From Tetramitus jugosus (lineage: Eukaryota > Protista > Heterolobosea): DNA of 64,000 nt. The stretch covers positions 1-64,000 of the forward strand of contig OW569380.1 of assembly GCA_937625935.1 (NCBI GenBank), written 5' to 3'. Both the position numbers and the translations under genes were made by a program. The notes under the pieces are model-generated. The model was not told the DNA's origin. It saw only the letters and a list, made by a program, of their open reading frames with translations, and searched no databases. Shown in pieces: positions 39,916 to 64,000 of the stretch; the first letter of the stretch is position 1; each line of letters opens with the position of its first letter.

Positions 39916-40340
39916 TTAATCACAAGCCTCATCGGTACCTCTATTGTAGAACACCTGGCGAGAAATATTTGAGGGATCAGTGATTGACAATGGCGTTTCC
40001 TCATTCTCAACAATTTCTTCGAAAAATCTCTGAATTATTCCCTTGACACCAATGGCATACGTCTCAATTGTGAGCAATCCCTGTTGAAGTTCGGAGAGCG
40101 TTTTAGTAGTGAAAAGGTGAGTTTCATCCACAGCTCGATTCAAATTTCCTCTTCCTAATTCTTGAAGGGCTCTTCGAGCTGTTTGTTTCCTTCTTGCAAG
40201 CGATCTCTTGACTTGATGTAGTAATTTTTTCCATTCCCTTTTGAAAAACCGTCGAATACATTATCCAAATCAAGATCCTCATTAGCTTCAAAATCAATGA
40301 TCATCATCGTGCCAGAAACAAATCCAAAATTTGTTACATT
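39916..40340 (-). pseudogene. Degraded copy of repeated small helical protein family 'B'
   Basis: RSLARRKQTARRALQELGRGNLNRAVDE shared with the copies at 43294, 44649 and 52333; internal deletion. Confidence 0.75.
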
Positions 40341-40361: not shown

Positions 40362-42408
40362 TGTAGCACACACAAAAAAAAACAATGTAACCAACAGCTG
40401 AACTGCAACACGACCAAAAAATCTTCCAGAGGAGGAAAGGCTGGTAGATGGTGTGTCCGTGCTCCCAGCGATACTATGGTAGAAAACTACAAGAATGTAG
40501 TTTCAAGTAACGGAAGACTAACACTGCGTCAACAAGAAAATTTCAGGATTGTTGACAACGATGTGCAGTTTCGAGTGATCAAGAAAGATTTGTCATTCAT
40601 ATTACGCCAGGACTCTAGAAGAAAAGGAAAAGGCAAAGCAGGCTAATGGAAAGGAATTCGAAAAGTACTGTGAAGTACAACACTCTTCAACTCCATTGTG
40701 ATTTACTATTCCACATACATCAGAAAGGAACAGGATACTGTGTGAAATTCACACTGAGAATCATCTTGGTGATAATTCAATGCGACATGAATTCCACAAA
40801 CAAAGAGTAACTTGGTTCAAGCTACAAGATCCTATTGCGAAATACTGTAACTCATGTACCATCTGCCAAATGAAAAATGGGACAAAAAGGCCAATTGTTC
40901 CATTTCGAATTGTGGTTGCAGAAAGGACACTCCAACATCTATATATCGACCTTTCATTCATGATGGTCGACAGCAGCCAAATTGGGATGGTCAATCTCAT
41001 TGATCATTTTACAAAGAGATTGTGGTCAAAGGCCATCCCTAGCAAGAGTGCGACAGTGGTTGCTGCATTCCTGGAGGAAGTTTCTGCGACATGGGATTGG
41101 TTGAAGAGAACGTTGAGCGTGACTCTGATGACGTCCAATTCACCACATACCTTAGAAGTGACAACGGTGGTGAGTTCATTGCAAAAGAGATTTCCACTCT
41201 CTGTTCCAGGTATGGAATCCAGAAGAAAGAGGGTGCTCCTTATGCGCCATGGATTCAAGGTGTTGTTGAAGCTGTGAACAAGACCATAAAGAACATGTTA
41301 AAGGCTCGAATGTTGTCCAACAACAGCACTGGTTGGTCACAAATGTTGCATTCAACATGTGTTCAGTATAACAATAAGTACCATTCTGTGATCAAGATGT
41401 CTCCAAACGAAGCCTGGGGTAGATGTTTTAGACCGAAGACCGAATCCACAAGCCATGACTGATCAAGAAACTGCAGATAGGCTATTCTGGCTACAAACAA
41501 TAAGAAATCGTACCATCGACAGATACAAAACACAGAGACAAAATTGGCTCAAAAGTGGAAAGGTGAACGTTTATTGTGTTGGCGATGTTGTGTTGGTGAG
41601 AGTACCTGAAAGGTATAGGTCAAAGCTGGAGTATCTCTGGGGTCGAAAAGGTGTTGTTGTGGATGCTCCGGTGGACGAGAGTGGCTTCTCGCTACTCAAG
41701 TATCGGTTGAGGTGGCTTGAAACAGGTGGCTTTAGGAAGTGTGAGGGCGTCGGTTCAGAAACGACCTATTTTGTTCACACTCGAGACCTCAAGCCGTTCG
41801 TATTGGGTCAAGATCTGTTGTTAGAGCCAGCAGATCATGAATCTTTGGACCACAGTGCGCCAGAATATCACGAGAATGACTATGAAGATGGCGTACTCTC
41901 CCCTCATACATGCCATCTGTTGGTCATGTTGGAGAGGAAAGAAATGTTGCAGTTGGTGCTGGTGATAGTGTTGCCAGAAAGCGAGACAGAGCATCTTTAG
42001 CACTGTTGGAATGTGTCGGCGAATCACCGAAATTTCCAGTAAAAAGTCGAAAAAATAGGAAGAGGAGAAAACGGGAAAATTGCAACCCACCACCATCATT
42101 TCCGCTACAGTGAGAGGCGTATGCAGGAACAAATATTCAAGAAACCATTGTGAGGGACGGGGGTGGCGTGGGTTTTCAGGCGAATGTCTCCTTGGACCAC
42201 GCTTACTAGGGCACGTCGCAACTCACAGTGTCCTGAATAAATTGTTCTTGCAAAGACGACCTACAGCATGCAAGGAAAATTGAGCAATTGTAATAAATTT
42301 TTTATTGTTTAATAAAATTATGGGTCTGTAGTAGCTTCCAGTCGTCTACAAAATTTTGTAGATGAAAAAAAAATTGAGCATCTACACATGTAGATACCAC
42401 AGACTACA
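40362..42408 (+). mobile_element. Decayed rve-integrase DNA transposon (Ginger/TDD-like), frameshifted
   Basis: HHCC (IHTENH...CNSCTIC), YIDL, IDHFTK, RSDNGGEF, PWIQGVVEAVNKTIK, YNNKYHS..KMSP across frameshifts near 41090 and 41455; no reverse transcriptase; TGTAG at 40362 and CTACA at 42408 (ends tentative). Confidence 0.75.
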
Positions 42409-42455
42409 GTTGTCTTCAGAATCAATGAGTTTATCAATTTATACCAAGCGAGATG

Positions 42456-42824
42456 CTATTTCTTGATTCTCAGACCAATTTGACCCAATTGTGCACCATT
42501 TACCTTATCTTTCAATAGAATAACAGAGCCTGGGAATTGTTGAGAGAAGAATTCAATCGTCCTGTTCTTGAGAAGTAACTTGGGTGCTTCATCTAGAGTG
42601 TTGACACGATCCATAAGGGATTGTGTGAGAAAAGTGTATTTTTCAGAAGGTAGCAATTTTCTTAACTTTGTCCTAATGTATGCCTTTAGTCCGTAGATGT
42701 TGTCCTCCTTTCTCATGGCTTCCAAAGTCATCAAAAGTTCCTCTTTGCTTTGTTTTCCATCTTCAACATCATTGGCATATTGTTGGATAACATTCAAGAT
42801 CTCACTTAGCTCTTTCCTTTCCAT
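42456..42824 (-). CDS. Hypothetical protein family 'A', copy 1
   Basis: 122-aa ORF with ATG; paralog at 45166 conserved at protein level. Confidence 0.65.
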   Translation of the reverse strand: MERKELSEILNVIQQYANDVEDGKQSKEELLMTLEAMRKEDNIYGLKAYIRTKLRKLLPSEKYTFLTQSLMDRVNTLDEAPKLLLKNRTIEFFSQQFPGSVILLKDKVNGAQLGQIGLRIKK

Positions 42825-43293
42825 GATTTATGTTGGCGAGTCGATGATTTTTTGTAGATATGACCGTTAAAGAATTTGTTAAAAATAGTCTTCGCTTGGT
42901 TATTGGTGGAAATTATTGTATTGCGAACATTCTTCACATGTATCCTGCCATTTCACTATTGGTCGCCAGAGAGTATCCGGCAGGAAAATCAATCTCTGCA
43001 CTCGAATATTAACAAGATGTGGAATCCGATGTTTATTGATAAAAAATGACTCAAAATATGACGGTTAGACCAAGGTTTTCCAGGATGCAGTGTCGATCTC
43101 GTTGTATTTAACATGGTTCCCTTCGCCTCGAAGCACCTTGTGGATATAGAGAGTGGATTCAAGTAGCCTGTACATGTTCAAAGTTGAGTCCTGTGAACTA
43201 GTTCCTTGTAAAGTACACCTTATTCTAAATCGTTTGACAAGGTTGTTCCTTTGATATCAGATGTTATATTTCAAGCTTTTTTTTATCAATCAT

Positions 43294-43679
43294 CTATTCA
43301 GTTTCTTCCCTTTCTAGCTCCTGTTCGAATCTCTGAACGGTTTCCTTGACACCCTCAACAAACTGCTCAAGATAGAACAGTTCTTCTTCTTCCAGAAAAA
43401 TAGAAAGAGTTTTAGTAGTGAAAAGGTGAGCTTCATCCACAGCTCGATTCAAATTTCCTCTTCCTAATTCTTGAAGAGCTCTTCGAGCTGTTTGTTTTCT
43501 TCTTGCGAGAGACCTTGTAAAAAACAAGTACTTGATTATTGGATCTTTTGACAAGATGTAGTAATTTCGTCCTTTTCCTTCTAAGAAACCACGGAATGCA
43601 CAGGTATGGGTGCTGATCCAGCGAGAAAGTCAATGATAACGGTCTTAAAAGAAACAAATCCAAAATTTGACCTATTCAT
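43294..43679 (-). pseudogene. Family 'B' small helical protein, frameshifted near 43600
   Basis: MNRSNFGFVS..IIDF N-terminus is out of frame with AFRGFLEGKGRNYYILSKDPII... Confidence 0.6.
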
Positions 43680-43810
43680 CACCACATCTGTCAAGCCACA
43701 AAACCTCGAAATTAAATCCAATTGAGAGAATTCCACCATGATATCCTCTGCACTTGGACTACGGTTGTCTTCAGAATCAATGAGTTTATCAATTTATACC
43801 AAGCGAGATG

Positions 43811-44179
43811 CTATTTCTTGATTCTCAGACCAATTTGACCCAATTGTGCACCATTTACCTTATCTTTCAATAGAATAACAGAGCCTGGGAATTGTTGAGA
43901 GAAGAATTCAATCGTCCTGTTCTTGAGAAGTAACTTGGGTGCTTCATCTAGAGTGTTGACACGATCCATAAGGGATTGTGTGAGAAAAGTGTATTTTTCA
44001 GAAGGTAGCAATTTTCTTAACTTTGTCCTAATGTATGCCTTTAGTCCGTAGATGTTGTCCTCCTTTCTCATGGCTTCCAAAGTCATCAAAAGTTCCTCTT
44101 TGCTTTGTTTTCCATCTTCAACATCATTGGCATATTGTTGGATAACATTCAAGATCTCACTTAGCTCTTTCCTTTCCAT
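43811..44179 (-). CDS. Hypothetical protein family 'A', copy 2
   Basis: Identical to copy 1. Confidence 0.65.
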   Translation of the reverse strand: MERKELSEILNVIQQYANDVEDGKQSKEELLMTLEAMRKEDNIYGLKAYIRTKLRKLLPSEKYTFLTQSLMDRVNTLDEAPKLLLKNRTIEFFSQQFPGSVILLKDKVNGAQLGQIGLRIKK

Positions 44180-44648
44180 GATTTATGTTGGCGAGTCGAT
44201 GATTTTTTGTAGATATGACCGTTAAAGAATTTGTTAAAAATAGTCTTCGCTTGGTTATTGGTGGAAATTATTGTATTGCGAACATTCTTCACATGTATCC
44301 TGCCATTTCACTATTGGTCGCCAGAGAGTATCCGGCAGGAAAATCAATCTCTGCACTCGAATATTAACAAGATGTGGAATCCGATGTTTATTGATAAAAA
44401 ATGACTCAAAATATGACGGTTAGACCAAGGTTTTCCAGGATGCAGTGTCGATCTCGTTGTATTTAACATGGTTCCCTTCGCCTCGAAGCACCTTGTGGAT
44501 ATAGAGAGTGGATTCAAGTAGCCTGTACATGTTCAAAGTTGAGTCCTGTGAACTAGTTCCTTGTAAAGTACACCTTATTCTAAATCGTTTGACAAGGTTG
44601 TTCCTTTGATATCAGATGTTATATTTCAAGCTTTTTTTTATCAATCAT

Positions 44649-45034
44649 CTATTCAGTTTCTTCCCTTTCTAGCTCCTGTTCGAATCTCTGAACGGTTTCC
44701 TTGACACCCTCAACAAACTGCTCAAGATAGAACAGTTCTTCTTCTTCCAGAAAAATAGAAAGAGTTTTAGTAGTGAAAAGGTGAGCTTCATCCACAGCTC
44801 GATTCAAATTTCCTCTTCCTAATTCTTGAAGAGCTCTTCGAGCTGTTTGTTTTCTTCTTGCGAGAGACCTTGTAAAAAACAAGTACTTGATTATTGGATC
44901 TTTTGACAAGATGTAGTAATTTCGTCCTTTTCCTTCTAAGAAACCACGGAATGCACAGGTATGGGTGCTGATCCAGCGAGAAAGTCAATGATAACGGTCT
45001 TAAAAGAAACAAATCCAAAATTTGACCTATTCAT
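44649..45034 (-). pseudogene. Family 'B' small helical protein, frameshifted duplicate
   Basis: Identical to the 43294 copy. Confidence 0.6.
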
Positions 45035-45165
45035 CACCACATCTGTCAAGCCACAAAACCTCGAAATTAAATCCAATTGAGAGAATTCCACCATGATATC
45101 CTCTGCACTTGGACTACGGTTGTCTTCAGAATCAATGAGTTTATCAATTTATACCAAGCGAGATG

Positions 45166-45537
45166 CTATTTCTTGATTCTCAGACCAATTTGACCCAATT
45201 GTGCACCATTTACCTTATCTTTCAATAGAATAACAGAGCCTGGGAATTGTTGAGAGAAGAATTCAATCGTCCTGTTCTTGAGAAGCAACTTGGGAGCTTC
45301 GTATAGATCGTCATAACGATCAAAAATAGAGTCCACAAAGATACGTCGTTTCTCTGGGGGCAGGAACTCTTTGTACTTTACCCCAAAGCTAATCATCAAC
45401 GACCTAAGTCTGTGGATGCTGGTGTTCTTTCTCAATGCTTCCAAAGTAATTAAAAACTCTTCTCTATGATCTTCGTCAATCTCCTCTGCATTTTTTTTGA
45501 AGATATCCAATGTGTCTCTTAACAATTTCCAATCCAT
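45166..45537 (-). CDS. Hypothetical protein family 'A', divergent copy
   Basis: Last ~43 aa identical to copies 1/2; N-terminal part diverged but alignable. Confidence 0.7.
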   Translation of the reverse strand: MDWKLLRDTLDIFKKNAEEIDEDHREEFLITLEALRKNTSIHRLRSLMISFGVKYKEFLPPEKRRIFVDSIFDRYDDLYEAPKLLLKNRTIEFFSQQFPGSVILLKDKVNGAQLGQIGLRIKK

Positions 45538-52332: not shown

Positions 52333-52719
52333 TTATTCAGCTTCCACCAGCTCCAATTCCGTGAAAAATCTCTGTATGGTTTTCTTGACACCATCGACAT
52401 ATTCGTCGAAACTTTCAAGGTTTTCTTTAAGTTCAGAGAGGAGATTAACTGAAACAAGACGAGCTTCATCTACGGCTCTCTCCAAATTTTCTTTACCTAA
52501 TTGTTGCAGAGCTCTGCGAGCAGTTTGTTTCCTTTTTGCTAGCGATCTTGCACAAAATGCATAGCGAATTATTGGGTCGCTAGATGCACCGTAGCTGTTT
52601 CTACCATTTCCTTTCAAGAATGATTTGAATACTCGCTCTGGAGTCGGTTCCTCTCCAGTTGTCCCGAACCGGCAGAGCAGAAATGGAGGTAACTCGATAT
52701 GGAATTTGCAATCGGGCAT
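52333..52719 (-). CDS. Family 'B' small helical protein, intact copy
   Basis: 128-aa ORF with DPIIRY..RSLAKRKQTARRALQQLG..NLERAVDEA, homologous to three degraded copies upstream. Confidence 0.75.
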   Translation of the reverse strand: MPDCKFHIELPPFLLCRFGTTGEEPTPERVFKSFLKGNGRNSYGASSDPIIRYAFCARSLAKRKQTARRALQQLGKENLERAVDEARLVSVNLLSELKENLESFDEYVDGVKKTIQRFFTELELVEAE

Positions 52720-52811
52720 CGAGCAACCCGATCGTAAAATGTGATTCGAGCAGATTGGAGGTCTACGACCCTATCGGTCCTCACGAACCGTTCGTGACAT
52801 AGCGTTAACAC

Positions 52812-53258
52812 TTATAATTTTCTCATGTTCTTGTTGATGTATTCTTCGATACGAGCGTTACCATCCTTACTCATCTTTCTATCGAAGTGTATTCCTGGTC
52901 CTAACTTTTCTGTAATTAACTTCATAAACATCTTATTATCGAATTCAAGTAAGGTATAATGTCTAATCTTAAGTAAAGCATGAACATGAAGACATTTCGT
53001 CTTAGGGCCTATCTCTAAAGCTGCTACAATATCACCAGTCTTGACATCAGGAGTATCAAAAACGTGGCCTTTTTCTCGTTCACTACTTTTAACAAGTACA
53101 TATTTTTCGATCATTTCGGGACTTAACATCTCCTTGATTGTATTCCAAAATAACTCCTTGTATTCTTGATAAGATTCTTCATACCCCGAAAATCTTTTGT
53201 TAGAATTGATTGTAAGGAAGAAGTTGCTTGGTCTTATCTGTCGTTTTTTATCATTCAT
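52812..53258 (-). CDS. Stand-alone HUH endonuclease (rolling-circle Rep nuclease domain)
   Basis: Motif I FFLTIN, motif II EIGPKTKCLHVHALL, motif III EEYINK; 148 aa from ATG 53258. Confidence 0.75.
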   Translation of the reverse strand: MNDKKRQIRPSNFFLTINSNKRFSGYEESYQEYKELFWNTIKEMLSPEMIEKYVLVKSSEREKGHVFDTPDVKTGDIVAALEIGPKTKCLHVHALLKIRHYTLLEFDNKMFMKLITEKLGPGIHFDRKMSKDGNARIEEYINKNMRKL

Positions 53259-53277
53259 TTTTATCACTGTAAGAAAA

Positions 53278-53655
53278 ATGCCAATCGAATATACCATGGA
53301 ATTCAACGATAACACTAACACAGAGAAAGCTGTAGATGAACAACCGAAAGTTGAAGAAATACCAGCTAAGGTTGAAGAAATACAACCGAAAACTGTAGAA
53401 ATACAACCGAAATTTGAAGAAATACAACCAGAGATTACTGAAGAAGCTGTTAAATTAGACTTTAATGCTATTGTCAAGGAGATAGAAGCTAAGAAAGAAC
53501 CAAAGAAAGAAGAGAAACCACCAGCACCTAAGTTTGTTGGTGGAATTTTAATCAGACCTCCTAAAGATACAGATGAACAACCAAAGATGAAAACATCTGA
53601 AATGATTGGTTATGGAGTTATAGCCACTTCGTTGTTCTCCTTGCTATTTCTGTAA
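53278..53655 (+). CDS. Small acidic protein with 7-aa (V/F)EEI(Q/P)xK repeats and C-terminal TM
   Basis: 21-bp repeats at ~53350-53430; hydrophobic C-terminus. Confidence 0.75.
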   Translation: MPIEYTMEFNDNTNTEKAVDEQPKVEEIPAKVEEIQPKTVEIQPKFEEIQPEITEEAVKLDFNAIVKEIEAKKEPKKEEKPPAPKFVGGILIRPPKDTDEQPKMKTSEMIGYGVIATSLFSLLFL

Positions 53656-53679
53656 AGTATTATTCATCTGACTATTAAA

Positions 53680-54783
53680 ATGTCAGATGAATACGACGCC
53701 ATGTTATCCTTCTTAAAGTTAGGAAAGATACCAGACGACTTCAGTAAAAATCAATTGTCTCGTTTTAGGAAGAAGTTAGCCAATGTTCAAGTAGACTCAT
53801 CTGATCGTTTGGTAAGGGATGAAAAGGTTATTGTTCAACCAACAGATAAGAATAAGATTCTTCATGATCTTTATCATAATACTTCAACTGGATACTGTGG
53901 TATTCAAAAGTTATACACAAGAACGAAGGAAAATTACGATGGAATAACAAGAGAAGATGTAGCAAACTATCTCAAGAGTGATTCGATCAATCAAAGAATG
54001 ACTAAACCTCCTAAGCATAGAGTTGTTAGACCGATTATTTCAAGTAAGAAGTTAGAACGAGTTCAAATTGATTTAGTTGATATGTCTACTCTTAGTTGGC
54101 ATAACAATAGACATAATTGGATTTTAACTGCAATTGATCATTTCAGTAAGTATGCTTGGGCTTTTCCAATCAAGAAGAAAAGTAAGGAAGGAGTTAGAGC
54201 TGCATTGGATCAACTTCCTATTGGTATTTCAGTTCTTCAATCAGACAATGGATCTGAATTCAATAATAACTTGGTTAAGGAATATTGTTCAAAGCGAAAC
54301 ATTAAGCATGTCATGAGTACACCTTATACTCCTCAAACCAATGGAGCAGTTGAAAAATTCAATGGAACTCTTAAGTCTATGTTGTTCAAGTATTTGGCTG
54401 ATAAAGGAGTCAAGAGATGGATCGATCAGTTACCTAATTTGATTGAGAATTACAACACAAGTTATCATCATACGATTAGAATGAGTCCAAAGAATGCTTA
54501 CGATAATAATGTCAATGTTAAACCTTTGATTGAAAAACAAGCTAAGAAGATGGTTCAACCTGATGCTTCTAGATTGAAACGAGGTGATTTAGTTCGTATT
54601 GTTCTGATCAAGGATCGTTACGAGAAGAAATATACAGCCAATTATTCTCAGGATATTTTCAAGATTAGTTCAGTGAGTAGAAATGCAAATGCTCAATATC
54701 GATTAGACGATCTTGAAGGAAAGCCTTGGGGTAGAGTTTACTATCGAAACGAGTTATTGCATGTAACGAAAACAGATTTGTAA
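53680..54783 (+). CDS. Retroviral-type (rve) integrase, Polinton/Maverick-like
   Basis: RVQIDLVDM, ILTAIDHFSKYAW, LQSDNGSEF, PQTNGAVEKFNGTLK (intact DDE), YNTSYHHTIRMSP, GDLVRI. Confidence 0.95.
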   Translation: MSDEYDAMLSFLKLGKIPDDFSKNQLSRFRKKLANVQVDSSDRLVRDEKVIVQPTDKNKILHDLYHNTSTGYCGIQKLYTRTKENYDGITREDVANYLKSDSINQRMTKPPKHRVVRPIISSKKLERVQIDLVDMSTLSWHNNRHNWILTAIDHFSKYAWAFPIKKKSKEGVRAALDQLPIGISVLQSDNGSEFNNNLVKEYCSKRNIKHVMSTPYTPQTNGAVEKFNGTLKSMLFKYLADKGVKRWIDQLPNLIENYNTSYHHTIRMSPKNAYDNNVNVKPLIEKQAKKMVQPDASRLKRGDLVRIVLIKDRYEKKYTANYSQDIFKISSVSRNANAQYRLDDLEGKPWGRVYYRNELLHVTKTDL

Positions 54784-54805
54784 TTATTTTTCTATAGTAA
54801 AACAA

Positions 54806-56047
54806 ATGTCAATCATAGGAAACAACGAAATCTTTTACTCACCTGAATTACAGGCCGCAGAGTATTATGACTCAAGATTAGAACGAATTGTCGGTGAGAA
54901 ACTTAGAATGATTCTGATTGCAGATCAGGCTCCGACTCCAAGTTTGAATGCTCAACAGATTTTCAGAATCAATAACAATCAAGGTAATAAGATGATTACT
55001 AAGCCAATTCTAACTAATTATGTTAGTCAAGTTACCGCAACTGGTACACCAACTACATTAGCTCTGGTTGATTACTTCGGAGTCTTTATTTACGATCGTA
55101 TTGAATTGTGGCAATCTGGTGTTCAAATCTCTCAAGTTACTGGACAACAAATGTACAATAACCTTGTTCAACATAATGATAGTGATGAACTTACAATCTT
55201 GAATGATCAAGTTGGTGGAGGTTTGACTGATGCTGAAAGAACAACCTTGGCTTTGACTGAACAGACTTTCTATCTTGATTTGTCTCAACATTTCTCTATC
55301 TTCTCTATTCCTATGGAATTGTTTTTACTTGATGGTCCTTTGGAAGTTAGAATTTACTATGCTCAAGGTCCAGCTACCAAGTATATCAGAAATGTTGCAG
55401 GTACCAATCCAACGTTCTCCTTCACTAAATCATCTGAGTTAATTGTGACTTACAATAATGTTGGTCTACCTTTGTATGAATCAACTGTTCAAAGAGCAAA
55501 GGAAGGAAAGGTTGTTAAGTTTGTTCACGATTATATCAATGTTCCATTGAGTATCACAAGTTCTGCTGTGAATCAAAACTTCAATATCTCTCAATTGGCT
55601 GATAATGATGTGATCCTAATTAATATCACTCAAAGATTGATGTCAGATTTGAACTCTGCTTCATCTCCGACTTATACAAACTTCCAGAAAATTCCTAAGT
55701 ATACCTTGAAGTCTCAAGGTAGATTCATTGCTGGTGCTGAGTTTGATTACTTGGATAGATACATTAGAAAGGTGTATATCAATAATCTTGGGTTCTTGGG
55801 TAGTGAAACATTAAGAAACTTGAATGTTTATCCAATCTGTTACGCTAATGATTTGGCTGAAACATTTGGTAATGATACTAACGATTACACTGGATCTAAG
55901 AATTTCAATGGAGTTACTGATGCTCAATTGATGTTGACATACGATACTGCACCTGCTGCATCCGAGATTCTTTGTAATATCGTTGTTGCAAAGAGATACG
56001 CTATCATTGATGGTAAGATCCGTCAGATTGTCAACACCGTTGTATAA
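54806..56047 (+). CDS. Putative double-jelly-roll major capsid protein
   Basis: 413 aa, beta-rich; YDRIELWQSGVQISQ, FYLDL..F..IPM..L..LEVRIY and C-terminal YPICYA...YTGSKNFNGVTDAQL mirror the conserved NCLDV/PLV MCP patterns (iel.iggq.id; lyiPl; Y.ysFal..psGs.Nfs.i). Confidence 0.78.
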   Translation: MSIIGNNEIFYSPELQAAEYYDSRLERIVGEKLRMILIADQAPTPSLNAQQIFRINNNQGNKMITKPILTNYVSQVTATGTPTTLALVDYFGVFIYDRIELWQSGVQISQVTGQQMYNNLVQHNDSDELTILNDQVGGGLTDAERTTLALTEQTFYLDLSQHFSIFSIPMELFLLDGPLEVRIYYAQGPATKYIRNVAGTNPTFSFTKSSELIVTYNNVGLPLYESTVQRAKEGKVVKFVHDYINVPLSITSSAVNQNFNISQLADNDVILINITQRLMSDLNSASSPTYTNFQKIPKYTLKSQGRFIAGAEFDYLDRYIRKVYINNLGFLGSETLRNLNVYPICYANDLAETFGNDTNDYTGSKNFNGVTDAQLMLTYDTAPAASEILCNIVVAKRYAIIDGKIRQIVNTVV

Positions 56048-56058
56048 ACACTTTTCAT

Positions 56059-56088
56059 AATTCATATCTCATCGATGAGATATGAATT
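56059..56088. terminator. Perfect 30-bp palindrome 3' of MCP
   Basis: AATTCATATCTCATCGATGAGATATGAATT. Confidence 0.7.
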
Positions 56089-56118
56089 CAAGTTAGATTT
56101 ATTCATTATACTAATAAA

Positions 56119-56487
56119 ATGTCTGGATATAATCTTCAAGTAATTAAACCGTACGACGCGCTGATTAAAGGTATTAGTCCTTCTTTGGCTAGGCCGTATG
56201 AAGATGCTATTAAAAATATACCTCAGAAAAAGTTTGGTCAAAGATTGATTGACTTTGTTAAAGGAATCCCTGAGAGATTGAATTTTGGAATCGATTATAG
56301 TATCGTTCAAACTGATAAACTCAGTAAGAGTGTTGGTTCGAATATTAGAAACATTCTAGGTGGTCAAGGTCTTGCTGGTGCTCTTAATGATGGAGCCAAG
56401 GGTATTGCAATTACAGGTGGACTTCTTACTGCCCCTATTGCCTTAGCTGCTGCTGCAATTGCCGCTGTTATCTTAATTAAACTATAA
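56119..56487 (+). CDS. Small Gly/Ala-rich protein with C-terminal TM (candidate virion membrane protein)
   Basis: 122 aa; GGLLTAPIALAAAAIAAVILIKL. Confidence 0.75.
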   Translation: MSGYNLQVIKPYDALIKGISPSLARPYEDAIKNIPQKKFGQRLIDFVKGIPERLNFGIDYSIVQTDKLSKSVGSNIRNILGGQGLAGALNDGAKGIAITGGLLTAPIALAAAAIAAVILIKL

Positions 56488-56498
56488 GTTATGTAGTA

Positions 56499-56521
56499 TA
56501 TCAGATGGAATCCATCTGATA
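56499..56521. terminator. Palindrome between convergent genes
   Basis: TATCAGATGGA-A-TCCATCTGATA. Confidence 0.7.
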
Positions 56522-56526
56522 CACAT

Positions 56527-57456
56527 TTATTCTTCTTCGTCAACGACTGTTTCTTCTTCGTCAATGATCGTTTCTTCGTCGCTGTCATAGTTTGGAATCC
56601 CCCAAGAAAACTCATCTTCATCTTCAACTTCAACATGTTGAGTTATTTCAGGTTGTTTCCTAGATAAAATATCATCATTGAAAGCGTCATGTAACATATC
56701 TTCAGTTAGAGGCTTCAATAGATTTTGTTTAAAATATTCAACGATATCAGTTATATATATATGTCTATCTAGGTACATATTATACCCTCTACTTGATATA
56801 TATTTTCTACCTAAATTATTCATCAATCTATCATATACAGTGGTTGGATTAATAATGAATTTTTGTGAGTTGTAAGTTGTTGTGTACATTCCATTTTTCA
56901 ATGTAAAAAGAAGAGATAATTTTGGTTTCTTCTTATATAAACCAATCATTACAAACTCTCGAGGATTCTTGAAGAATGGGTAAGCTGTTTCCATAGGGGA
57001 ATCTTCTATTTTATCCATAGGGCGCGATAGATGAGAAATATCCCTCTCATCAAAGTTAACATGTCTAGGATATTGTTTGATATACTTATGAAGATCAAGG
57101 AAAATATGAACGTATGTTCTATTTAATGTATCGTTGAGTATATCGTTGGCATCTAGATTTTCATCGAAAAATCCACTTGTATAGTTCCATTTACTGAGTT
57201 TTCTCTTAAGGAAATAATAAACTATTTCCATTGGGATATAGTATGTTAGATCTTTTGAATGTTCGTGTTCATATCTCAGATCTTTTAGCTCAAACAGTAA
57301 TTTTGATCCATCTAATATTCCTATTACTTCTAAATATAAACTTCTATACGTAAGTCCATCGAAACGTATTGTTTGTAGACATTGATGATCTGTTCCTACT
57401 AATATTTCAGGGAATGACCAAGTTCTGTCTTCGATATATAATCTTTCGTACTTCAT
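56527..57456 (-). CDS. Hypothetical protein with acidic tail
   Basis: 309-aa ORF, TAATAAATG start context. Confidence 0.8.
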   Translation of the reverse strand: MKYERLYIEDRTWSFPEILVGTDHQCLQTIRFDGLTYRSLYLEVIGILDGSKLLFELKDLRYEHEHSKDLTYYIPMEIVYYFLKRKLSKWNYTSGFFDENLDANDILNDTLNRTYVHIFLDLHKYIKQYPRHVNFDERDISHLSRPMDKIEDSPMETAYPFFKNPREFVMIGLYKKKPKLSLLFTLKNGMYTTTYNSQKFIINPTTVYDRLMNNLGRKYISSRGYNMYLDRHIYITDIVEYFKQNLLKPLTEDMLHDAFNDDILSRKQPEITQHVEVEDEDEFSWGIPNYDSDEETIIDEEETVVDEEE

Positions 57457-57463
57457 TTATTAC

Positions 57464-57487
57464 TTTACAGATAATTTTATCTGTAAA
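57464..57487. terminator. Palindrome 3' of the 57499-57735 ORF
   Basis: TTTACAGATAA-TT-TTATCTGTAAA. Confidence 0.65.
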
Positions 57488-57498
57488 ATGTATCTATT

Positions 57499-57735
57499 TT
57501 ATCCAATTAAGTTGTTCAACAAAATACCTATACATGCAGACATGAATCCAACATATAAAGTTTCTTTCATTTTAGGTGATATCATAATTGGTTTTTGTTC
57601 AACATTTTGAACTTCAGTGATATATTCATTCGTTGTTTTAATTACAACCGTATACGGTTCTTCGTCTGTAAAGTGAGCTTTAGTATTTTCAATTATTTCG
57701 TTTATTCTTGATGCTTCTGGTGTTGATTCTGTCAT
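57499..57735 (-). CDS. Small protein with C-terminal TM
   Basis: 78 aa; LYVGFMSACIGILLNNLIG. Confidence 0.7.
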   Translation of the reverse strand: MTESTPEASRINEIIENTKAHFTDEEPYTVVIKTTNEYITEVQNVEQKPIMISPKMKETLYVGFMSACIGILLNNLIG

Positions 57736-57781
57736 ATTTTATAATCTTTTCATATTTTTATTCGTCTTTGTATCGATTCAA

Positions 57782-57942
57782 ATGAAATAACTAAAAGGTG
57801 AGAAGGGTGTGAGGAACGTTTTTAAAAGTTTTCTATATTCATTTCTTTCAACTCAAAATACTTTATATCTCCACTTCTCACCCTTCTCACCTTTTTAGTT
57901 ATTTTAATATATTATATAGATAGACTAAAGGATAAATAGAGA
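57782..57942 (+). repeat. Origin-like inverted repeat, copy L (internally palindromic, GGTGAGAAG iterons)
   Basis: Reverse complement of 63538-63699 apart from a ~20-nt diverged centre. Confidence 0.9.
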
Positions 57943-57989
57943 TTGAAAAAAATAATCAAACGATATTAATGATAACTAGATGTTTTTGG

Positions 57990-58014
57990 ATCAATCTCAT
58001 TTAATGAGATTGAT
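57990..58014. terminator. Palindrome 3' of the helicase gene
   Basis: ATCAATCTCATT-T-AATGAGATTGAT. Confidence 0.7.
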
Positions 58015-58022
58015 TCTATCGA

Positions 58023-60080
58023 TTAATCAGATGGATCATGTTCAGATGATACAACCCATGAAACTTCTTTAGTATAAGTAGATCGATTGGCAGCATACAC
58101 AAAATCTCTTGATTCCATACTTGATTTAAATTGTTGTGAGTTAATTTTATAACCGCTAATATCATTTAAAGTTTTATATTCTTTAAAACCTGCAAATTTG
58201 AGAACCAATTTATATTTCACGTTATTACCTATGTTATTTCTATTAAAGGTTGAAAATTGAAGTTGACTAATGGATTCTGCAATCCAAACATCAATAGGAT
58301 CAGCTGACTTACCCTTCATCAACTCAAGAAGTTTTGTTTTAGGATAATCTTGAATAACGAAGGAACTGATATCACGTTTCATGAAAAATGTAAACAACGA
58401 ATTCATTACATTATCATCCTCAAGCATAGCAAGAATTTTCGTAGAATGATCGTAATCCTCCTTGTATTTAGGAACACATTTAAAACAAGCGAATCTTCTA
58501 TCGTTGTCATCTATTTTGAAGTATTCCCATTTATTAGTGAAGAATATAGCAAATAAAAAATTATCAACAGTTGCGTATTCTTCGTATAACCTACGTATCT
58601 CAATCTTATCTTCACTGATAATGTTCTTTAATTTTTCTGCATTTTCTCCAAAACCTTGAACTTCGTCTCCAATTATGCCAAGTATGTTTTGTAATGATCC
58701 ATTCTTTTCACCCGTGATCTGATTTATATGATTTATCATTCTAATAACAAATTCACCAAATAATTTAGATATAATTTTTGCCAAAATTCCTTTACCAGTA
58801 CCAGTTGTAGATGATAAAAGCATCGCAACGTCAGTTTTGAGATGAGGATATTGAACCTTCTTGGCAATAAAATTAAGGAACCATTCAAGATAATTATCAT
58901 TACATTCAACTAACATATGGAAATGATCCATGAACAAACCAATCGTAGGGTCACATGAATATCTTGAAGTTTGTTTTTCAGCGTTACCTTTTTCTGTAAC
59001 AATACATTCATAATTTGGTAAGACTTTATATGGGAATCCGTAGAATGTATTAATTCTTCTAGTGTCCAACCAACTCAATGGATAAGGAATAAATACTTCT
59101 TCGAGGTAAACATGTGTCTTTAGCAACAAGTCATGTATCTCTTTTTCAGTATAAGTGATATATCTTGGTACAGTTTCACCTGCAATCAATCTGTTCTTGA
59201 GACTAGATGTAGTTTCCCATTTTCTCTGTTCAGCTGCATACTCGTTATCATTTAATTTTCTAGAAAATCCAGACGATCTATGGTATCCATTACTTGCTAA
59301 TTTTTCAACAACATAACGAGCGATTTTACCTTCAACCTTCGTATGTTTGACATAAAACCAATGGTTATTACCAATACTACGTATACCAGCAGTTGCCTCA
59401 AGGGCACACATCATTGATTCGAAATCATCATAATCTCCCTTGGCATCATGATAGGTGAAAGTATCCTTAGGATTCAAGAATCTTAATCTTGCAGTATGTC
59501 TAGGATCATCAAATTCTTCATCATCTTGAATCTCTTCAAGAGTACCTACTGAATCTTCAATGTTAGGAGGTTGAATAATAGTATCGACAAAATCAGGGGC
59601 AGCATTATCGATATTCGGAATTTGACCAACTGAAGCTTCCCATTCACAATCAATGTATGCAACTCTTTCACCAGTTATGTATGATCCACAACCAGGTAAA
59701 AGAAATTCTTCACCTTTACCTTCAATATTAATAGTGACTGTTTGATAGTCAAGAGGATTAACAATACTTTGAAATACTGCAGTATTGTCCATACCAATAC
59801 CATATTTCTTTCTAAACTGTTCTTCGGTCATCTCGAATACAGAGACAAACTTATCAATATCACTGTCTTCCAATGTCATGGTGTGATCACACCATGAAGG
59901 TGACGCATCTAAAGGACATGAAACGATTAAAAATTTATCGTCACAAGAGAAATAATCTCCATTAACATTCAAACCAAGTTTCTTAAAATATTCACCAACT
60001 GCTTTTACTTCATTCTGAGTTGGAACATCAAACGGATCAGTCATTACCTTCTGTAATCTTTTTGTACTTACTCTACTCAT
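58023..60080 (-). CDS. D5-like / SF3-type helicase (DUF5906 / NrS-1-like C-terminal ATPase)
   Basis: Walker A TTGTGKG, Walker B IIGDE, motif C IFFTN, arginine finger DRRF. Confidence 0.9.
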   Translation of the reverse strand: MSRVSTKRLQKVMTDPFDVPTQNEVKAVGEYFKKLGLNVNGDYFSCDDKFLIVSCPLDASPSWCDHTMTLEDSDIDKFVSVFEMTEEQFRKKYGIGMDNTAVFQSIVNPLDYQTVTINIEGKGEEFLLPGCGSYITGERVAYIDCEWEASVGQIPNIDNAAPDFVDTIIQPPNIEDSVGTLEEIQDDEEFDDPRHTARLRFLNPKDTFTYHDAKGDYDDFESMMCALEATAGIRSIGNNHWFYVKHTKVEGKIARYVVEKLASNGYHRSSGFSRKLNDNEYAAEQRKWETTSSLKNRLIAGETVPRYITYTEKEIHDLLLKTHVYLEEVFIPYPLSWLDTRRINTFYGFPYKVLPNYECIVTEKGNAEKQTSRYSCDPTIGLFMDHFHMLVECNDNYLEWFLNFIAKKVQYPHLKTDVAMLLSSTTGTGKGILAKIISKLFGEFVIRMINHINQITGEKNGSLQNILGIIGDEVQGFGENAEKLKNIISEDKIEIRRLYEEYATVDNFLFAIFFTNKWEYFKIDDNDRRFACFKCVPKYKEDYDHSTKILAMLEDDNVMNSLFTFFMKRDISSFVIQDYPKTKLLELMKGKSADPIDVWIAESISQLQFSTFNRNNIGNNVKYKLVLKFAGFKEYKTLNDISGYKINSQQFKSSMESRDFVYAANRSTYTKEVSWVVSSEHDPSD

Positions 60081-60229
60081 CTTTCTTTCTTTCTTTTTAA
60101 TTCTAGAGATATTTTTTATTTCTAGAATTTTTTAAAAAACTTTCAATTCGTTTTAAAAATCATATTTTTAAAAATAAATAAAAAAATTCAATAAAAATAT
60201 ATTTACTATAAAAAATTCATTAATCTTTT

Positions 60230-60260
60230 TCATATCACTTCCATTGTATAAGTGATATGA
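60230..60260. terminator. Hairpin 3' of the 60271-60648 ORF
   Basis: TCATATCACTT-(9 nt)-AAGTGATATGA. Confidence 0.65.
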
Positions 60261-60270
60261 TACTGTATAT

Positions 60271-60648
60271 TCATAAGGTGAATGTAACATTATTTGCATT
60301 GAAGTATTCCATGATACGTTGTCCTGGTTTTCTGTTTGTGAAATATTTTACATGTTCTTTAACCCATTCAATTTCTACAGGCTTAGCTGTTCCATTCATA
60401 ATCTTTGTACATTGATAGTTAAATTTACCGTATAACGACCTCATATCAGTTACCTTAGCCATTGTCTTTTCGTGTTCTAACTTTCGTTGTTTTTCTTCCT
60501 CATGTTTTCTCTTCAATTCTTCATGGAAGAGTCTATTCTTTTCATGGAAATTCTTATTCAGTTGAACTTTACGATCAGCTATTTCTTGTTTAATTGAAGT
60601 AAACAACTCAGATAATTCTTCGATACTCATTTCTTTGATATTTATCAT
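60271..60648 (-). CDS. Hypothetical coiled-coil protein
   Basis: 125-aa ORF. Confidence 0.75.
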   Translation of the reverse strand: MINIKEMSIEELSELFTSIKQEIADRKVQLNKNFHEKNRLFHEELKRKHEEEKQRKLEHEKTMAKVTDMRSLYGKFNYQCTKIMNGTAKPVEIEWVKEHVKYFTNRKPGQRIMEYFNANNVTFTL

Positions 60649-60677
60649 TTTTTAAATGATAAATATATATTTATTTT

Positions 60678-62036
60678 TTATTTTTTTATTAATAATCGTT
60701 CATCTAAAATTGGTAGTATGAATTTTGTACTTGTACATATACATAATTTTTGATAATCCATTATCTGTTGCATACGTGGTTCTTTTTTTACTTCCCATCT
60801 TTTAGCTGAAACTTCAACTGAAGCTAAAGTACCTAGATCTAGAGAACCTAACATAAAAGACTGTCCGTGATTTCTGAAACAACGTAAATGAACGTTTTTC
60901 TTATCACCTGAAATGGTTAAATAAGCATTTTCATTATCATGTGTTCTATTACAAACTAAACAATAACATGATTTTTTACGTTTCAACTTGATAGTTGTAC
61001 CTAAAGATTCTTCAACATTAAATGAATCTTCATGATATGGAGCGATTCTATGAAACATGTTAATTGCTCCTTCAATTTCACTCTCTGATACTTCTCCTCC
61101 AATAAATTTAGTCTTTTTCATTTTATCGATAGTTATAGGACATACTAACAGTTTAGATGTATTTAAAATCAATCCAACTAAAGAGTATCTAAATCTATTT
61201 AGATGGCTCAACTTTATATTATTGATATCTTCACTATCATTATACACGATTTTTTTACCATTGTATGTCCAATACTTATCGAACTTCATTCTATTTGTAC
61301 CAGCTTTTCTATTATACGGGAGTCTAAATTGTTGTAATGAACTATACACACTAGGATCTACAAACTTTTTCACATTATCAGGAAGATGACTAACCACATG
61401 ATCATAAAAAACTTTTGCTTCCTCATGATCTGGATGATAAACTCCATCAACGATGATATGAACACTATATTTCTTTCCTTTCTCTATCATACCAGTTGAT
61501 TCATAAACGATGATGTTCTTTACAGGGTCTATTTCAACTCCCCAAAGTTTACAACATTCGATAATTAAGCTACACATGTAATCTATAAAATAGTCAAACC
61601 ATTCATCTGTTACCCATGAATCCTCAGTTTCAATATCAAATCTAGGTTTCTGTGGTCCTTCTGTAATAACTTCAAAGAAGTTTAAATGTTCTAATGAAGC
61701 TCTACCGCCAGTATGATTGAGCTTTAAAAACGAATACTTATATTCAGTTGGAGGAATATTAGTTGTTCTAAACTCGAATTTTTTTACATCTTCATCTTTG
61801 ATTTCAGTGATTGTATTATAACCCCCAGCTTGGTGAATCATTTTTTCGAGATCATTGATATTCATCATTGAATATAATCTTCGATTGTTTTCGTCACAGT
61901 GACATATGATAATATCCCCATGAGCCTTCACATTATTCGATAATAATGTTGGAGTTCCATTTTTTATCGAATCTTGACTATCTTTGAGATAATAGTATGC
62001 TTCATGTACAACTGTATCCTTGTAAGTAAACTTCAT
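60678..62036 (-). CDS. Archaeo-eukaryotic primase (PrimPol / NCLDV-herpes clade) with C-terminal Zn finger
   Basis: FFEVI..QKPRFDIE (motif I), KYSVHII (II), VDPSVYSSLQQFRL..NRK (III), CLVCNRTHDNEN...CFR. Confidence 0.9.
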   Translation of the reverse strand: MKFTYKDTVVHEAYYYLKDSQDSIKNGTPTLLSNNVKAHGDIIICHCDENNRRLYSMMNINDLEKMIHQAGGYNTITEIKDEDVKKFEFRTTNIPPTEYKYSFLKLNHTGGRASLEHLNFFEVITEGPQKPRFDIETEDSWVTDEWFDYFIDYMCSLIIECCKLWGVEIDPVKNIIVYESTGMIEKGKKYSVHIIVDGVYHPDHEEAKVFYDHVVSHLPDNVKKFVDPSVYSSLQQFRLPYNRKAGTNRMKFDKYWTYNGKKIVYNDSEDINNIKLSHLNRFRYSLVGLILNTSKLLVCPITIDKMKKTKFIGGEVSESEIEGAINMFHRIAPYHEDSFNVEESLGTTIKLKRKKSCYCLVCNRTHDNENAYLTISGDKKNVHLRCFRNHGQSFMLGSLDLGTLASVEVSAKRWEVKKEPRMQQIMDYQKLCICTSTKFILPILDERLLIKK

Positions 62037-62097
62037 TTTTATTATTTGTTAGATTTTTTTAAATTTAGTTTTTTAAAAATTCTTCATTTATTTTTAA

Positions 62098-62127
62098 AAT
62101 CATACAATTTATTTCAATTGTATGATT
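62098..62127. terminator. Hairpin 3' of the 62159-62734 ORF
   Basis: AATCATACAATT-(6 nt)-AATTGTATGATT. Confidence 0.65.
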
Positions 62128-62158
62128 CATTGTTACATTGTTCATTCATAGTGTGAAG

Positions 62159-62734
62159 TTAAAATTCATCAGTAATTGTTGCAATGGTTAAGTATAAAAG
62201 ATCATGAAAGAATCTAAATCGAGTACCTTCAATTTCAATTGTACTATCATCCATATGCATACATGTTACATTGATTAATTCCTTACAAAAGATTCTAAAA
62301 GTCATTGGAATATCCTTCGTATAAACTGTTGTTTCAATTGAACCTATCCTCAAGAATTCTTTCATAATTATTAGAACAACATCATCGTATAGATTTCCAT
62401 CGTATGTAGGCATAATTTCAACTGTTACGAAACGAATCAATGATGTTACAAATAAGATGTCATCCCATTCAAGTTTAGTACCAAACACCATTGATAATTG
62501 ATTGAAAACTCCTTGAAGATCTTTGAAAAACATTTTAGTCAATTCAATGTTTTCATCTGAATAAATCATTTCAAAAGGGTCTGGATCTTTACCTAAGAAT
62601 CTTAAAGTACATAGACGTACATGTAATTCAAATATCTTTAAATCTTTCTTGATATCATCAGATGGATCTAATGCAAGTTTATAAGTTTCATAGATGATAT
62701 CAAGCTCTCTGTTGTAGCGTTCTAAGTCGTTCAT
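62159..62734 (-). CDS. Hypothetical helical protein (paralog of 62967-63512)
   Basis: 191-aa ORF; ELDIIYETYKLAL, SLIRFVTVEIMPTY. Confidence 0.8.
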   Translation of the reverse strand: MNDLERYNRELDIIYETYKLALDPSDDIKKDLKIFELHVRLCTLRFLGKDPDPFEMIYSDENIELTKMFFKDLQGVFNQLSMVFGTKLEWDDILFVTSLIRFVTVEIMPTYDGNLYDDVVLIIMKEFLRIGSIETTVYTKDIPMTFRIFCKELINVTCMHMDDSTIEIEGTRFRFFHDLLYLTIATITDEF

Positions 62735-62749
62735 TTATTACTATGCGTA

Positions 62750-62776
62750 TAATATGTATCCATTGGATACATATTA
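62750..62776. terminator. Palindrome 3' of the 62780-62980 ORF
   Basis: TAATATGTATCCA-T-TGGATACATATTA. Confidence 0.7.
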
Positions 62777-62779
62777 GTT

Positions 62780-62980
62780 TTAACAATCAATTACTCCATC
62801 CAGGAAATCGATAAGTCCTTCAAGGTTCTTACGTTCATCTTCTAACTCTTTAAGTTTCTCTTGAACATCATTGATTAATGCTTTTGTAACTTTCATTTCA
62901 TCTTCTTTACATTGAAGTTCTAATTGAAGTTCAATTATAAAGAATTGAAGGTCTTTAATCTCTGAATCAATGTCTATCAT
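62780..62980 (-). CDS. Small coiled-coil protein
   Basis: 66 aa with heptad pattern; overlaps the stop of the upstream ORF. Confidence 0.65.
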   Translation of the reverse strand: MIDIDSEIKDLQFFIIELQLELQCKEDEMKVTKALINDVQEKLKELEDERKNLEGLIDFLDGVIDC

Positions 62981-63512
62981 TGCGTATTGCTTTTAATAGT
63001 ACAAACAATAACTTATGTTGTTCAGGATTTATATCAATCGGTCTTCCATCACGATATTGATCAGATAATTCAATTAATGTTTTAACTAAAACTTTTTCAA
63101 CTACTCTTGTTTCAGTCGATACACTTTTCAATGTATTGATTACAACACGTTCAAACTCTTCATTGTTATAGACGTAGCTGAATGTTGGTAAAACTTCTCG
63201 AGTTAAATAGTTGATTAAACTTCGTCCAATCTTTATATCTTTCCATGTTCCGTAGTCATCGTCTAACCAATCAATGTTGTCTTCTCTTAATGCTTCTCTG
63301 AAGATGTCTCTATATACATCTGAATGAAAACTATAAGATTTCAATGAATGTTCGAACATTGAATAAGCGCTTTCTGATCCTGTTGCTTGAAGTAGATCGT
63401 ATCTAAAGAATACTTTGTCTTCAATGTTTGGTTCAATTAGTATCGCCTTATAGATTCCATGGATAACATCTAGTCCAGCTTCATATTTCAAGATATCCTT
63501 GTATTCGTCCAT
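62967..63512 (-). CDS. Hypothetical helical protein (paralog of 62159-62734)
   Basis: 181-aa ORF; GLDVIHGIYKAIL, SLINYLTREVLPTF. Confidence 0.8.
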   Translation of the reverse strand: MDEYKDILKYEAGLDVIHGIYKAILIEPNIEDKVFFRYDLLQATGSESAYSMFEHSLKSYSFHSDVYRDIFREALREDNIDWLDDDYGTWKDIKIGRSLINYLTREVLPTFSYVYNNEEFERVVINTLKSVSTETRVVEKVLVKTLIELSDQYRDGRPIDINPEQHKLLFVLLKAIRNDRH

Positions 63513-63537
63513 TTATTCATTCAGTCGATTATTTCAT

Positions 63538-63699
63538 TCTCTATTTATCCTTTAGTCTATCTATATAATATATTAAAATAACTAAAAAGGTGAGAAGGGT
63601 GAGAAGTGGAGATATAAAAGTATTATGAAATTTAAAAATGAATATAGAAAACTTTTAAAAACGTTCCTCACACCCTTCTCACCTTTTTAGATGTTTCAT
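63538..63699 (-). repeat. Origin-like inverted repeat, copy R
   Basis: Reverse complement of 57782-57942. Confidence 0.9.
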
Positions 63700-64000
63700 A
63701 TATATTGAGGATAATACGAATGAATAGAACGAAACTAAAAATAATACAAAACGATACCAAAGGATACAAGCAACTCTAATAATGAGTATAAAACTCGATA
63801 TAGTAAAGCTGAGCATAGTCCCTATATAGGGACTGGTATATTAATGCTTAACTCGAAATAGTAATCGATATCAAGTTTATTGAAGCATAGCTTCAATAAA
63901 TATAGAAATAATAATAAGTATGAGAAATGGATATACTTTATAGCACAGCGTTACTATCAATCCCAGTCGTAGTTTATTATACTGGATCATTAATGATCCA

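Follow-up and report, generated by a model that had tools for sequence, protein, structure and literature searches.

Perfect hairpins follow most genes of a small virus integrated in Tetramitus jugosus, whose capsid is of giant-virus type

An integrated virus at the end of the window

The window analysed here is the whole stretch of 64,000 nucleotides (nt) at the start of contig OW569380.1 (assembly GCA_937625935.1) of the heterolobosean Tetramitus jugosus. About 51 kb of it is host DNA, with long uninterrupted eukaryotic open reading frames (ORFs) and a GC content of ∼41%. Its alanyl-tRNA synthetase matches those of Willaertia magna and Naegleria fowleri best among named proteins, each at 55% identity, which suggests a heterolobosean outside these two genera. 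From ∼52.8 kb onward lies an integrated small virus, hereafter the element, whose GC content is 27–36% and whose 13 tightly packed ORFs (87.5% coding) extend past the end of the window; the visible element amounts to 11.3 kb, and its right part lies beyond 64000. An earlier note on this DNA, made from the letters alone, had reported palindromes after most genes of the element and suggested that it depends on the transcription system of a giant virus. The present computational analysis confirms that the hairpins are a genuine gene-end feature of this element, which carries a capsid gene of giant-virus type. The features of the element are the following (lengths of proteins in amino acids, aa; stems in bp, loops in nt).

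52660–52799, plus strand: left terminal repeat, 140 bp, 51% GC, starting with TG and ending with CA, first and last 10 nt inverted at 9/10 positions
52781–52797, no strand: palindrome of 8 bp closing the terminal repeat on its inner side and echoing the repeat's first ten bases
52812–53297, minus strand: HUH (rolling-circle Rep-type) endonuclease, atlas match to PF23343 REP_ORF2-G2P clusters, score 0.95
53278–53655, plus strand: 125-aa acidic protein with a hydrophobic C-terminus, from the ORF list
53661–53693, plus strand: hairpin after ORF 53278–53655, stem 12, loop 9, including the rve start codon
53680–54783, plus strand: rve integrase (Pfam rve, E = 7e-12), uninterrupted, no hairpin of its own, ending 22 nt before the start of the capsid gene
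54806–56047, plus strand: major capsid protein (MCP), double jelly-roll, Nucleocytoviricota-like, by profile, Pfam and model
56059–56088, plus strand: hairpin after the MCP gene, stem 15, loop 0
56119–56487, plus strand: 122-aa protein with a hydrophobic C-terminus, from the ORF list, no Pfam assignment
56499–56521, no strand: hairpin shared by convergent genes, stem 11, loop 1
56527–57456, minus strand: 309-aa protein, from its ORF
57464–57487, minus strand: hairpin after the 78-aa ORF 57499–57735, stem 11, loop 2
57782–57951, plus strand: first copy of the internal inverted repeat, ∼170 bp, sharing 93% identity with the second copy
57990–58014, minus strand: hairpin after the helicase gene, stem 12, loop 1
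58023–60080, minus strand: superfamily 3 (SF3)/D5-like helicase (Pfam DUF5906, E = 7e-15; VapE-like, E = 2e-9; PHROG primase-helicase, E = 9e-20)
60230–60260, minus strand: hairpin after ORF 60271–60648, stem 11, loop 9
60638–60666, minus strand: hairpin after the AEP gene, stem 13, loop 3, including the start codon of the next gene
60678–62036, minus strand: likely AEP primase with a UL52-like zinc finger (Pfam Herpes_UL52, E = 0.005, below the cut-off)
62098–62127, minus strand: hairpin after ORF 62159–62734, stem 12, loop 6
62750–62776, minus strand: hairpin after the overlapping ORFs 62967–63512 and 62780–62980, stem 13, loop 1
63529–63699, minus strand: second copy of the internal inverted repeat
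63876–63900, no strand: 11-bp hairpin with no ORF of at least 60 aa nearby in the window

Hairpins at the gene ends

Inverted repeats are present at all nine places where the earlier note had put palindromes, and seven of these are true gene-end hairpins with perfect stems of 11–15 bp (56059–56088, 56499–56521, 57464–57487, 57990–58014, 60230–60260, 62098–62127 and 62750–62776). The remaining two had to be corrected. A hairpin does exist after the AEP gene, but 60659–60674 is an 8-bp run of A and T only, which overlaps the real 13-bp hairpin at 60638–60666; and the inverted repeat near the HUH gene (52781–52797) has only 8 bp, is richer in GC, lies inside the 140-bp terminal repeat and is different in kind. 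It is likely a terminal or integrase motif, which may double as the 3′ signal of the HUH gene. Two further hairpins had been missed, at 53661–53693 (12 bp, after ORF 53278–53655) and at 63876–63900 (11 bp). There are thus nine distinct gene-end hairpins, one of them common to a convergent gene pair, and all nine, with stems of 11–15 bp, are free of mismatches; loops are 0–2 nt in five of the nine.

Perfect stems of at least 11 bp number 11 in the element (52770–64000), compared with a mean of 0.13 and a maximum of 1 in 60 rounds of shuffling that kept the local 50-nt composition, and no stem of even 10 bp was found in 51,100 host bases, counted at the DNA level in this one window. Gene by gene (stem at least 11 bp, loop at most 10 nt), such a stem occurs within 70 nt past the stop codon in 10 of 13 element genes and within 200 nt in none of 24 host ORFs, which we chose from mechanical ORF lists of the single window (Fisher p = 8e-7). 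When each 70-nt post-stop window was shuffled 400 times, 11 bp was attained in at most 0.5%. Moreover, the z-scores of minimum free energy (MFE) of 3′ regions differ between the 13 element ORFs and 25 host ORFs (Mann–Whitney p = 4e-5); this host set includes ORF 52333–52719, which was left out of the set of 24 as it spans the insertion point. The enrichment holds against both controls that had been proposed as a check, composition-matched shuffles and host 3′ regions, and the remark that host genes show no comparable pattern stands. The same shuffles and per-gene host comparison rule out chance palindromes in A/T-rich DNA. Bacterial-type terminators were also considered and are ruled out, as no GC-rich stem with a U tract occurs in the hairpin sequences; a search of Rfam gave no match.

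The hairpins keep to a narrow position. The distance from stop codon to stem is 3–14 nt in 10 of 11 gene–hairpin pairs and 31 nt in the remaining one (the HUH palindrome counted), and in three of the four purely 5′ regions the best stem is 4–5 bp, the fourth, upstream of the helicase gene, having a 10-bp stem of almost pure A/T. Two genes without a hairpin, rve and ORF 62967–63512, lie 22 nt before and overlapping, respectively, a hairpin-bearing gene on the same strand, and therefore every apparent transcription unit except HUH closes with a hairpin of 11–15 bp. Two hairpins span the start codon of the following gene (rve and ORF 60271–60648). The longest word common to any two hairpins is 7 nt, which agrees with the earlier statement that structure rather than sequence is conserved.

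Two side observations concern palindromes elsewhere in the element: an 11-bp GC-balanced perfect palindrome lies within the helicase coding sequence (59876–59897), and three palindromes (63817–63834, 63876–63900 and 63983–64000) stand within 300 bp at 63700–64000, where there is no ORF of at least 60 aa.

Capsid and classification

The MCP ORF encodes 413 aa and has 75 relatives at E ≤ 0.001, which are ∼400 aa long when complete; those looked up (18 + 10 proteins) are unnamed or hypothetical and metagenomic. A profile built from 66 relatives matches the capsids of EhV-201 (E = 5e-18), PBCV-1 and faustovirus and the poxvirus protein D13, and Pfam assigns Capsid_N to 18 and Capsid_NCLDV to 4 of the 66. 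While the fold from the single sequence reached a pLDDT of only 30, the alignment-based model has a pLDDT of 94.7, and its best structural matches are giant-virus capsids at a TM score of about 0.7; virophage capsids occupy ranks 41–50, the first at 41 and Sputnik at 50. The capsid is a double jelly-roll protein closest to giant-virus capsids; it belongs to a family of its own of ∼400-aa proteins and is 9–17% identical to its viral capsid matches. No homolog was found in phages. Thus the capsid, being of Nucleocytoviricota and not of virophage type, rules out a virophage (Virophaviricetes), and the label 'provirophage-like' in the earlier note is taxonomically wrong.

For the HUH protein, PF23343 is carried by 41% and 11% of the members of the two atlas clusters, and the HVH and YxxK motifs are in the sequence; there was no Pfam match of note and a word search gave no homolog. 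Its true start may be the second ATG, at codon 14. The AEP ORF, which has no match in the Protein Data Bank, contains what we take to be the AEP catalytic motifs, and the 309-aa ORF gave no usable match in Pfam, PHROG or atlas searches. With an MCP like those of nucleocytoplasmic large DNA viruses (NCLDV), an rve integrase, HUH, an SF3 helicase and a likely AEP primase, the element resembles the mriyavirus-related 'Zoravirus'/VC218 Polinton-like viruses, a likeness based on descriptions of the groups. As described in a preprint (bioRxiv 10.64898/2026.06.19.733378), these groups have an NCLDV-like capsid, RVE in 57–62% and HUH in 28% to about half of their members; 'Zoravirus' (VC102), VC218 and VC134 share with the element the NCLDV-like MCP, RVE and HUH, a variable helicase/primase module and terminal repeats. 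By contrast, the main text of that preprint does not mention hairpins, palindromes, heteroloboseans or Naegleria. The Mriyaviricetes (Yaraviridae and 'Gamadviridae') are described as likewise having an NCLDV-related capsid with HUH, AEP and SF3 helicase and no DNA or RNA polymerase seen, but they are without integration genes and are proposed to be nuclear, whereas the element has rve and 3′ hairpins; a mriyavirus proper is ruled out by the rve integrase. Traits of mriyaviruses include VLTF2, VLTF3 and a genome of 35–45 kb. For the envelope protein Mriya48, a trait of the 'Zoravirus' VC102/VC218 groups, the two small element ORFs whose products have a hydrophobic C-terminus may be candidates.

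No relative with flanking DNA was found in viral contigs (IMG/VR) or genome contigs, and one 1,157-bp metagenome contig encodes an MCP that is 58% identical. It carries a different 5-bp stem, 20 nt past the stop codon and ending at the contig's last base; a stem like this arises by chance at 1.4% of positions, so that it is a weak hint that the hairpin habit may be common to relatives.

As a further observation, the ∼170-bp inverted repeats exactly flank a six-gene replication module of 5.9 kb and lower GC, and within each copy the sequence forms a long, imperfect palindrome that includes a TATAAAAG-like word. The bracketed module may be a cassette that can be inverted or swapped, or a nested element of transpoviron size, or the repeats could be paired origins or promoters; a contig of 5,655 bp covers the inside of the module.

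Starts of the element genes

The pattern T-A(2–5)-ATG, which resembles the poxvirus late motif TAAATG, is found at the starts of 7 of 13 element genes, compared with 1 of 18 host genes (p = 0.004) and 19 of 478 other ATGs. The host set excludes six ORFs whose starts are doubtful or duplicated. It is a post hoc pattern, chosen after eight other upstream motifs had been tried. Because two hairpins span the ATG of the next gene, transcription there would have to begin very near the ATG, as this motif would permit. The regions upstream of the helicase (60081–60230) and AEP (62037–62099) genes are long, similar and nearly pure A/T; they include a 10-bp A/T stem and the word TCTA, and are a possible shared early promoter.

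The hairpins as probable signals for a helper giant virus

Transcripts of mimiviruses end in a 3′ hairpin of unconserved sequence that is described as being nicked by a viral RNase III and tailed by a viral poly(A) polymerase (PMC4402537). The same signal is reported for 16 genes of the Sputnik virophage and as absent from amoeba transcripts, which was taken as use of the helper's machinery (PMC6723459), and for transpovirons, again taken as helper dependence (PMC7031253); it is also described in Marseilleviridae (PMC5413956), the klosneuvirus BsV (PMC5871332) and a pithovirus (PMC11814242). The element agrees with this rule in having A/T-rich palindromes just past the stop codons, of unconserved sequence and missing from host genes, and at a similar frequency (10/13 genes, against 16/21 in Sputnik and 78% of genes in moumouvirus, by the figures given for them). 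To this extent the proposed giant-virus link fits. What differs here is that the rule appears, at the DNA level, in a chromosomal provirus of a protist, with perfect stems of 11–15 bp and without AAAATTGA. Endogenous mavirus and other provirophages, as described, also integrate by rve into protists and carry signals matching those of giant viruses, which imply helper-triggered expression; unlike mavirus, the element has a non-virophage capsid, shows neither pPolB nor a protease in its visible part and has its shared signal at 3′ ends, while mavirus has the late promoter of CroV on all genes. The suggestion that the element may be an inducible defence against giant viruses has this analogy with mavirus as its sole basis.

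We consider it probable, with moderate confidence, that the hairpins are mRNA 3′-end signals read by the RNase III and poly(A) polymerase of a helper giant virus, and that the element would depend on that helper. Pfam, PHROG and other searches of the 13 visible ORFs recognised neither an RNA polymerase nor a poly(A) polymerase nor an RNase III, and Pfam recognised no cysteine protease, penton or packaging ATPase. With no transcription enzyme recognised in the visible element and no hairpins after host genes, transcription by a helper is the simplest account. Once excised or copied, the element would be transcribed by the helper RNA polymerase, beginning at short A/T-rich starts directly next to the ATG; each transcript would be nicked in its hairpin by the helper RNase III and tailed by the helper poly(A) polymerase. 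The rve gene and ORF 62967–63512 would use the hairpin of the next gene, and where a hairpin lies over the next start codon (rve and ORF 60271–60648) the downstream transcript would begin inside it. Replication would proceed by the element's own HUH, helicase and primase with a borrowed DNA polymerase, followed by packaging in its own capsid and reintegration by rve. Some Polinton-like viruses are described as dependent on giant viruses (bioRxiv 10.64898/2026.06.19.733378).

Several observations weigh against helper dependence. Within 150 nt upstream of the element genes, AAAATTGA and AAATATTT occur in 0/13 each; TATATA stands upstream of 2/13 genes and a TCTA-type word of 2/13, which is not significant. 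AATAAA occurs within 100 nt of the stop codon in 5/13 element and 8/18 host genes. Only three of the nine stems have at least 13 perfect pairs, the threshold that Byrne et al. reportedly used for Mimivirus stems in 2009. Extensions of the stems by G-U pairs are three in the sense and two in the antisense direction, one pair being the same shared hairpin; without a clear bias to the sense strand, selection at the RNA level is not demonstrated. Nine of ten hairpin arms contain ATC or GAT (P = 4e-4 compared with shuffles, post hoc), a small sequence bias for which a DNA-level role could account too. Six visible element ORFs have no assigned function, and the right part beyond the window could encode a processing enzyme of its own. 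For mriyaviruses, the closest class that has a name, reproduction in the nucleus has been proposed (PMC11253617). Naegleriavirus, the one heterolobosean giant virus retrieved, is reported as not lysing Vahlkampfia or Tetramitus, the two non-Naegleria genera tried (PMC11043551), and therefore the helper cannot be named.

Part of this evidence would suit an element that is autonomous in the nucleus, whose hairpins are mRNA 3′ signals cut by a host RNase III-type enzyme or a nuclease of the element, the likeness to giant viruses being due to an ancestry that this Nucleocytoviricota-related lineage shares with them. We regard this as unlikely, though it deserves more weight than the readings that follow: a Nucleocytoviricota-type capsid means that the signal may be inherited, integration by rve requires a nuclear phase, mriyaviruses are proposed to be nuclear, no known helper promoter was found, and the element extends beyond the window. 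Yet the lack of hairpins after all 24 host ORFs suggests that the usual host mRNA pathway does not use them, no processing enzyme was recognised in the 13 ORFs, and medusavirus, described as lacking most transcription genes and starting replication in the nucleus, is a nucleus-dependent virus in which, as reported, no 3′ hairpins were found (PMC8557863).

It is improbable that the palindromes act as DNA, in the form of cruciforms or single-strand hairpins for the HUH nuclease or for recombination at gene borders that shuffles modules. Pure Watson–Crick stems with short loops, the lack of a clear strand bias in the G-U extensions, the ATC/GAT bias and the presence of an HUH gene would all be in keeping with such a role, but the hairpins track the stop codons and are missing from three of the four purely 5′ regions, and a rolling-circle replicon requires one origin, not one for each gene. 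HUH nicking sites are sequence-specific, whereas the hairpins share no word longer than 7 nt. A preprint on Halocafeteria proposes that terminal palindromes of other endogenous elements serve as primers at the DNA level, and the palindromes described there are at element termini only (bioRxiv 10.64898/2026.07.28.741278). A non-functional relic of genes taken from a giant virus, in an integrated copy that is dead or uses host AATAAA-type signals, is very improbable. AATAAA-type hexamers do lie downstream of 5–8 of the 13 genes; on the other side, all nine stems are free of mismatches in the capsid and replication modules alike, the element ORFs are uninterrupted, the MCP stands apart in its own family, and alternative flanks suggest more than one insertion.

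Insertion site and neighbouring host sequence

In contigs of two runs, X1 and X2, other flanks occur before 52659/52660 and behind 52799, which point to more than one insertion, and one contig runs on behind 52659 without the element, its continuation resembling the sequence at 40287, after a paralogue of the flank. The contig breaks and this element-free continuation therefore place the 140-bp TG-starting terminal repeat in a host repeat. Both runs are from one study, possibly the window's own source, and are not independent samples; contig depth in them is 98 for the element and about 52–92 for the host flank, a figure that is not a copy number. The terminal repeat is similar to a long terminal repeat in its TG...CA ends with 10-bp inversion, and one alternative inner flank opens with a short inversion of its end.

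Sequence related to tandem 1,355-bp units (42402–45307, 99.7% identical, each with an ORF of 122 aa that matches no known family) is found at 40011–40206 and 52354–52548 and is the repeat hit by the virus insertion. A second, unrelated integrase gene at 40780–42000 is broken over three ORFs (Integrase_H2C2, rve) and has host-like GC and no gene-end hairpin. The window begins with ∼180 copies of CCCAAA (1–1142), the telomere array of a chromosome end, followed by a 39-bp subtelomeric repeat that contains palindromes (1839–2117); a short intronless ribonucleotide reductase gene lies close to the telomere (5322–6836) and a pyrimidine-dimer DNA glycosylase gene at 15805–16605.

Significance

The hairpin rule and this class of element have each been described already, and their combination in a heterolobosean provirus was not found reported; no report of 3′ hairpins in Polinton-like viruses, yaravirus or mriyaviruses was found in a literature search that left most subscription journals and bioRxiv supplements outside. 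Heteroloboseans have seldom yielded integrated capsid genes: PMC11702301 reports a single one in Willaertia and none in assemblies of Naegleria. In discussions of where giant viruses came from, mriyaviruses and Zora-like groups figure as living relatives of the ancestors, the former also as replicating in the nucleus, and how most Polinton-like viruses replicate is not known. A hairpin at each gene would mark helper dependence in a form readable from sequence, for which thousands of Polinton-like genomes can be screened, and a copy of the element in a protist chromosome is a setting in which the prediction is testable.

More tentatively, and at somewhat less than even chances in our view, a lineage of small integrating viruses with giant-virus-type capsids, so far placed with the small viruses nearest to giant viruses, may be factory parasites: endogenous satellites outside the virophages, which would follow the hairpin rule of their helper, be woken in heterolobosean amoebae by giant-virus infection and carry their replication module as a swappable cassette between the 170-bp inverted repeats. 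The hairpins would also point to an undiscovered giant virus of this amoeba lineage that itself follows the hairpin rule.

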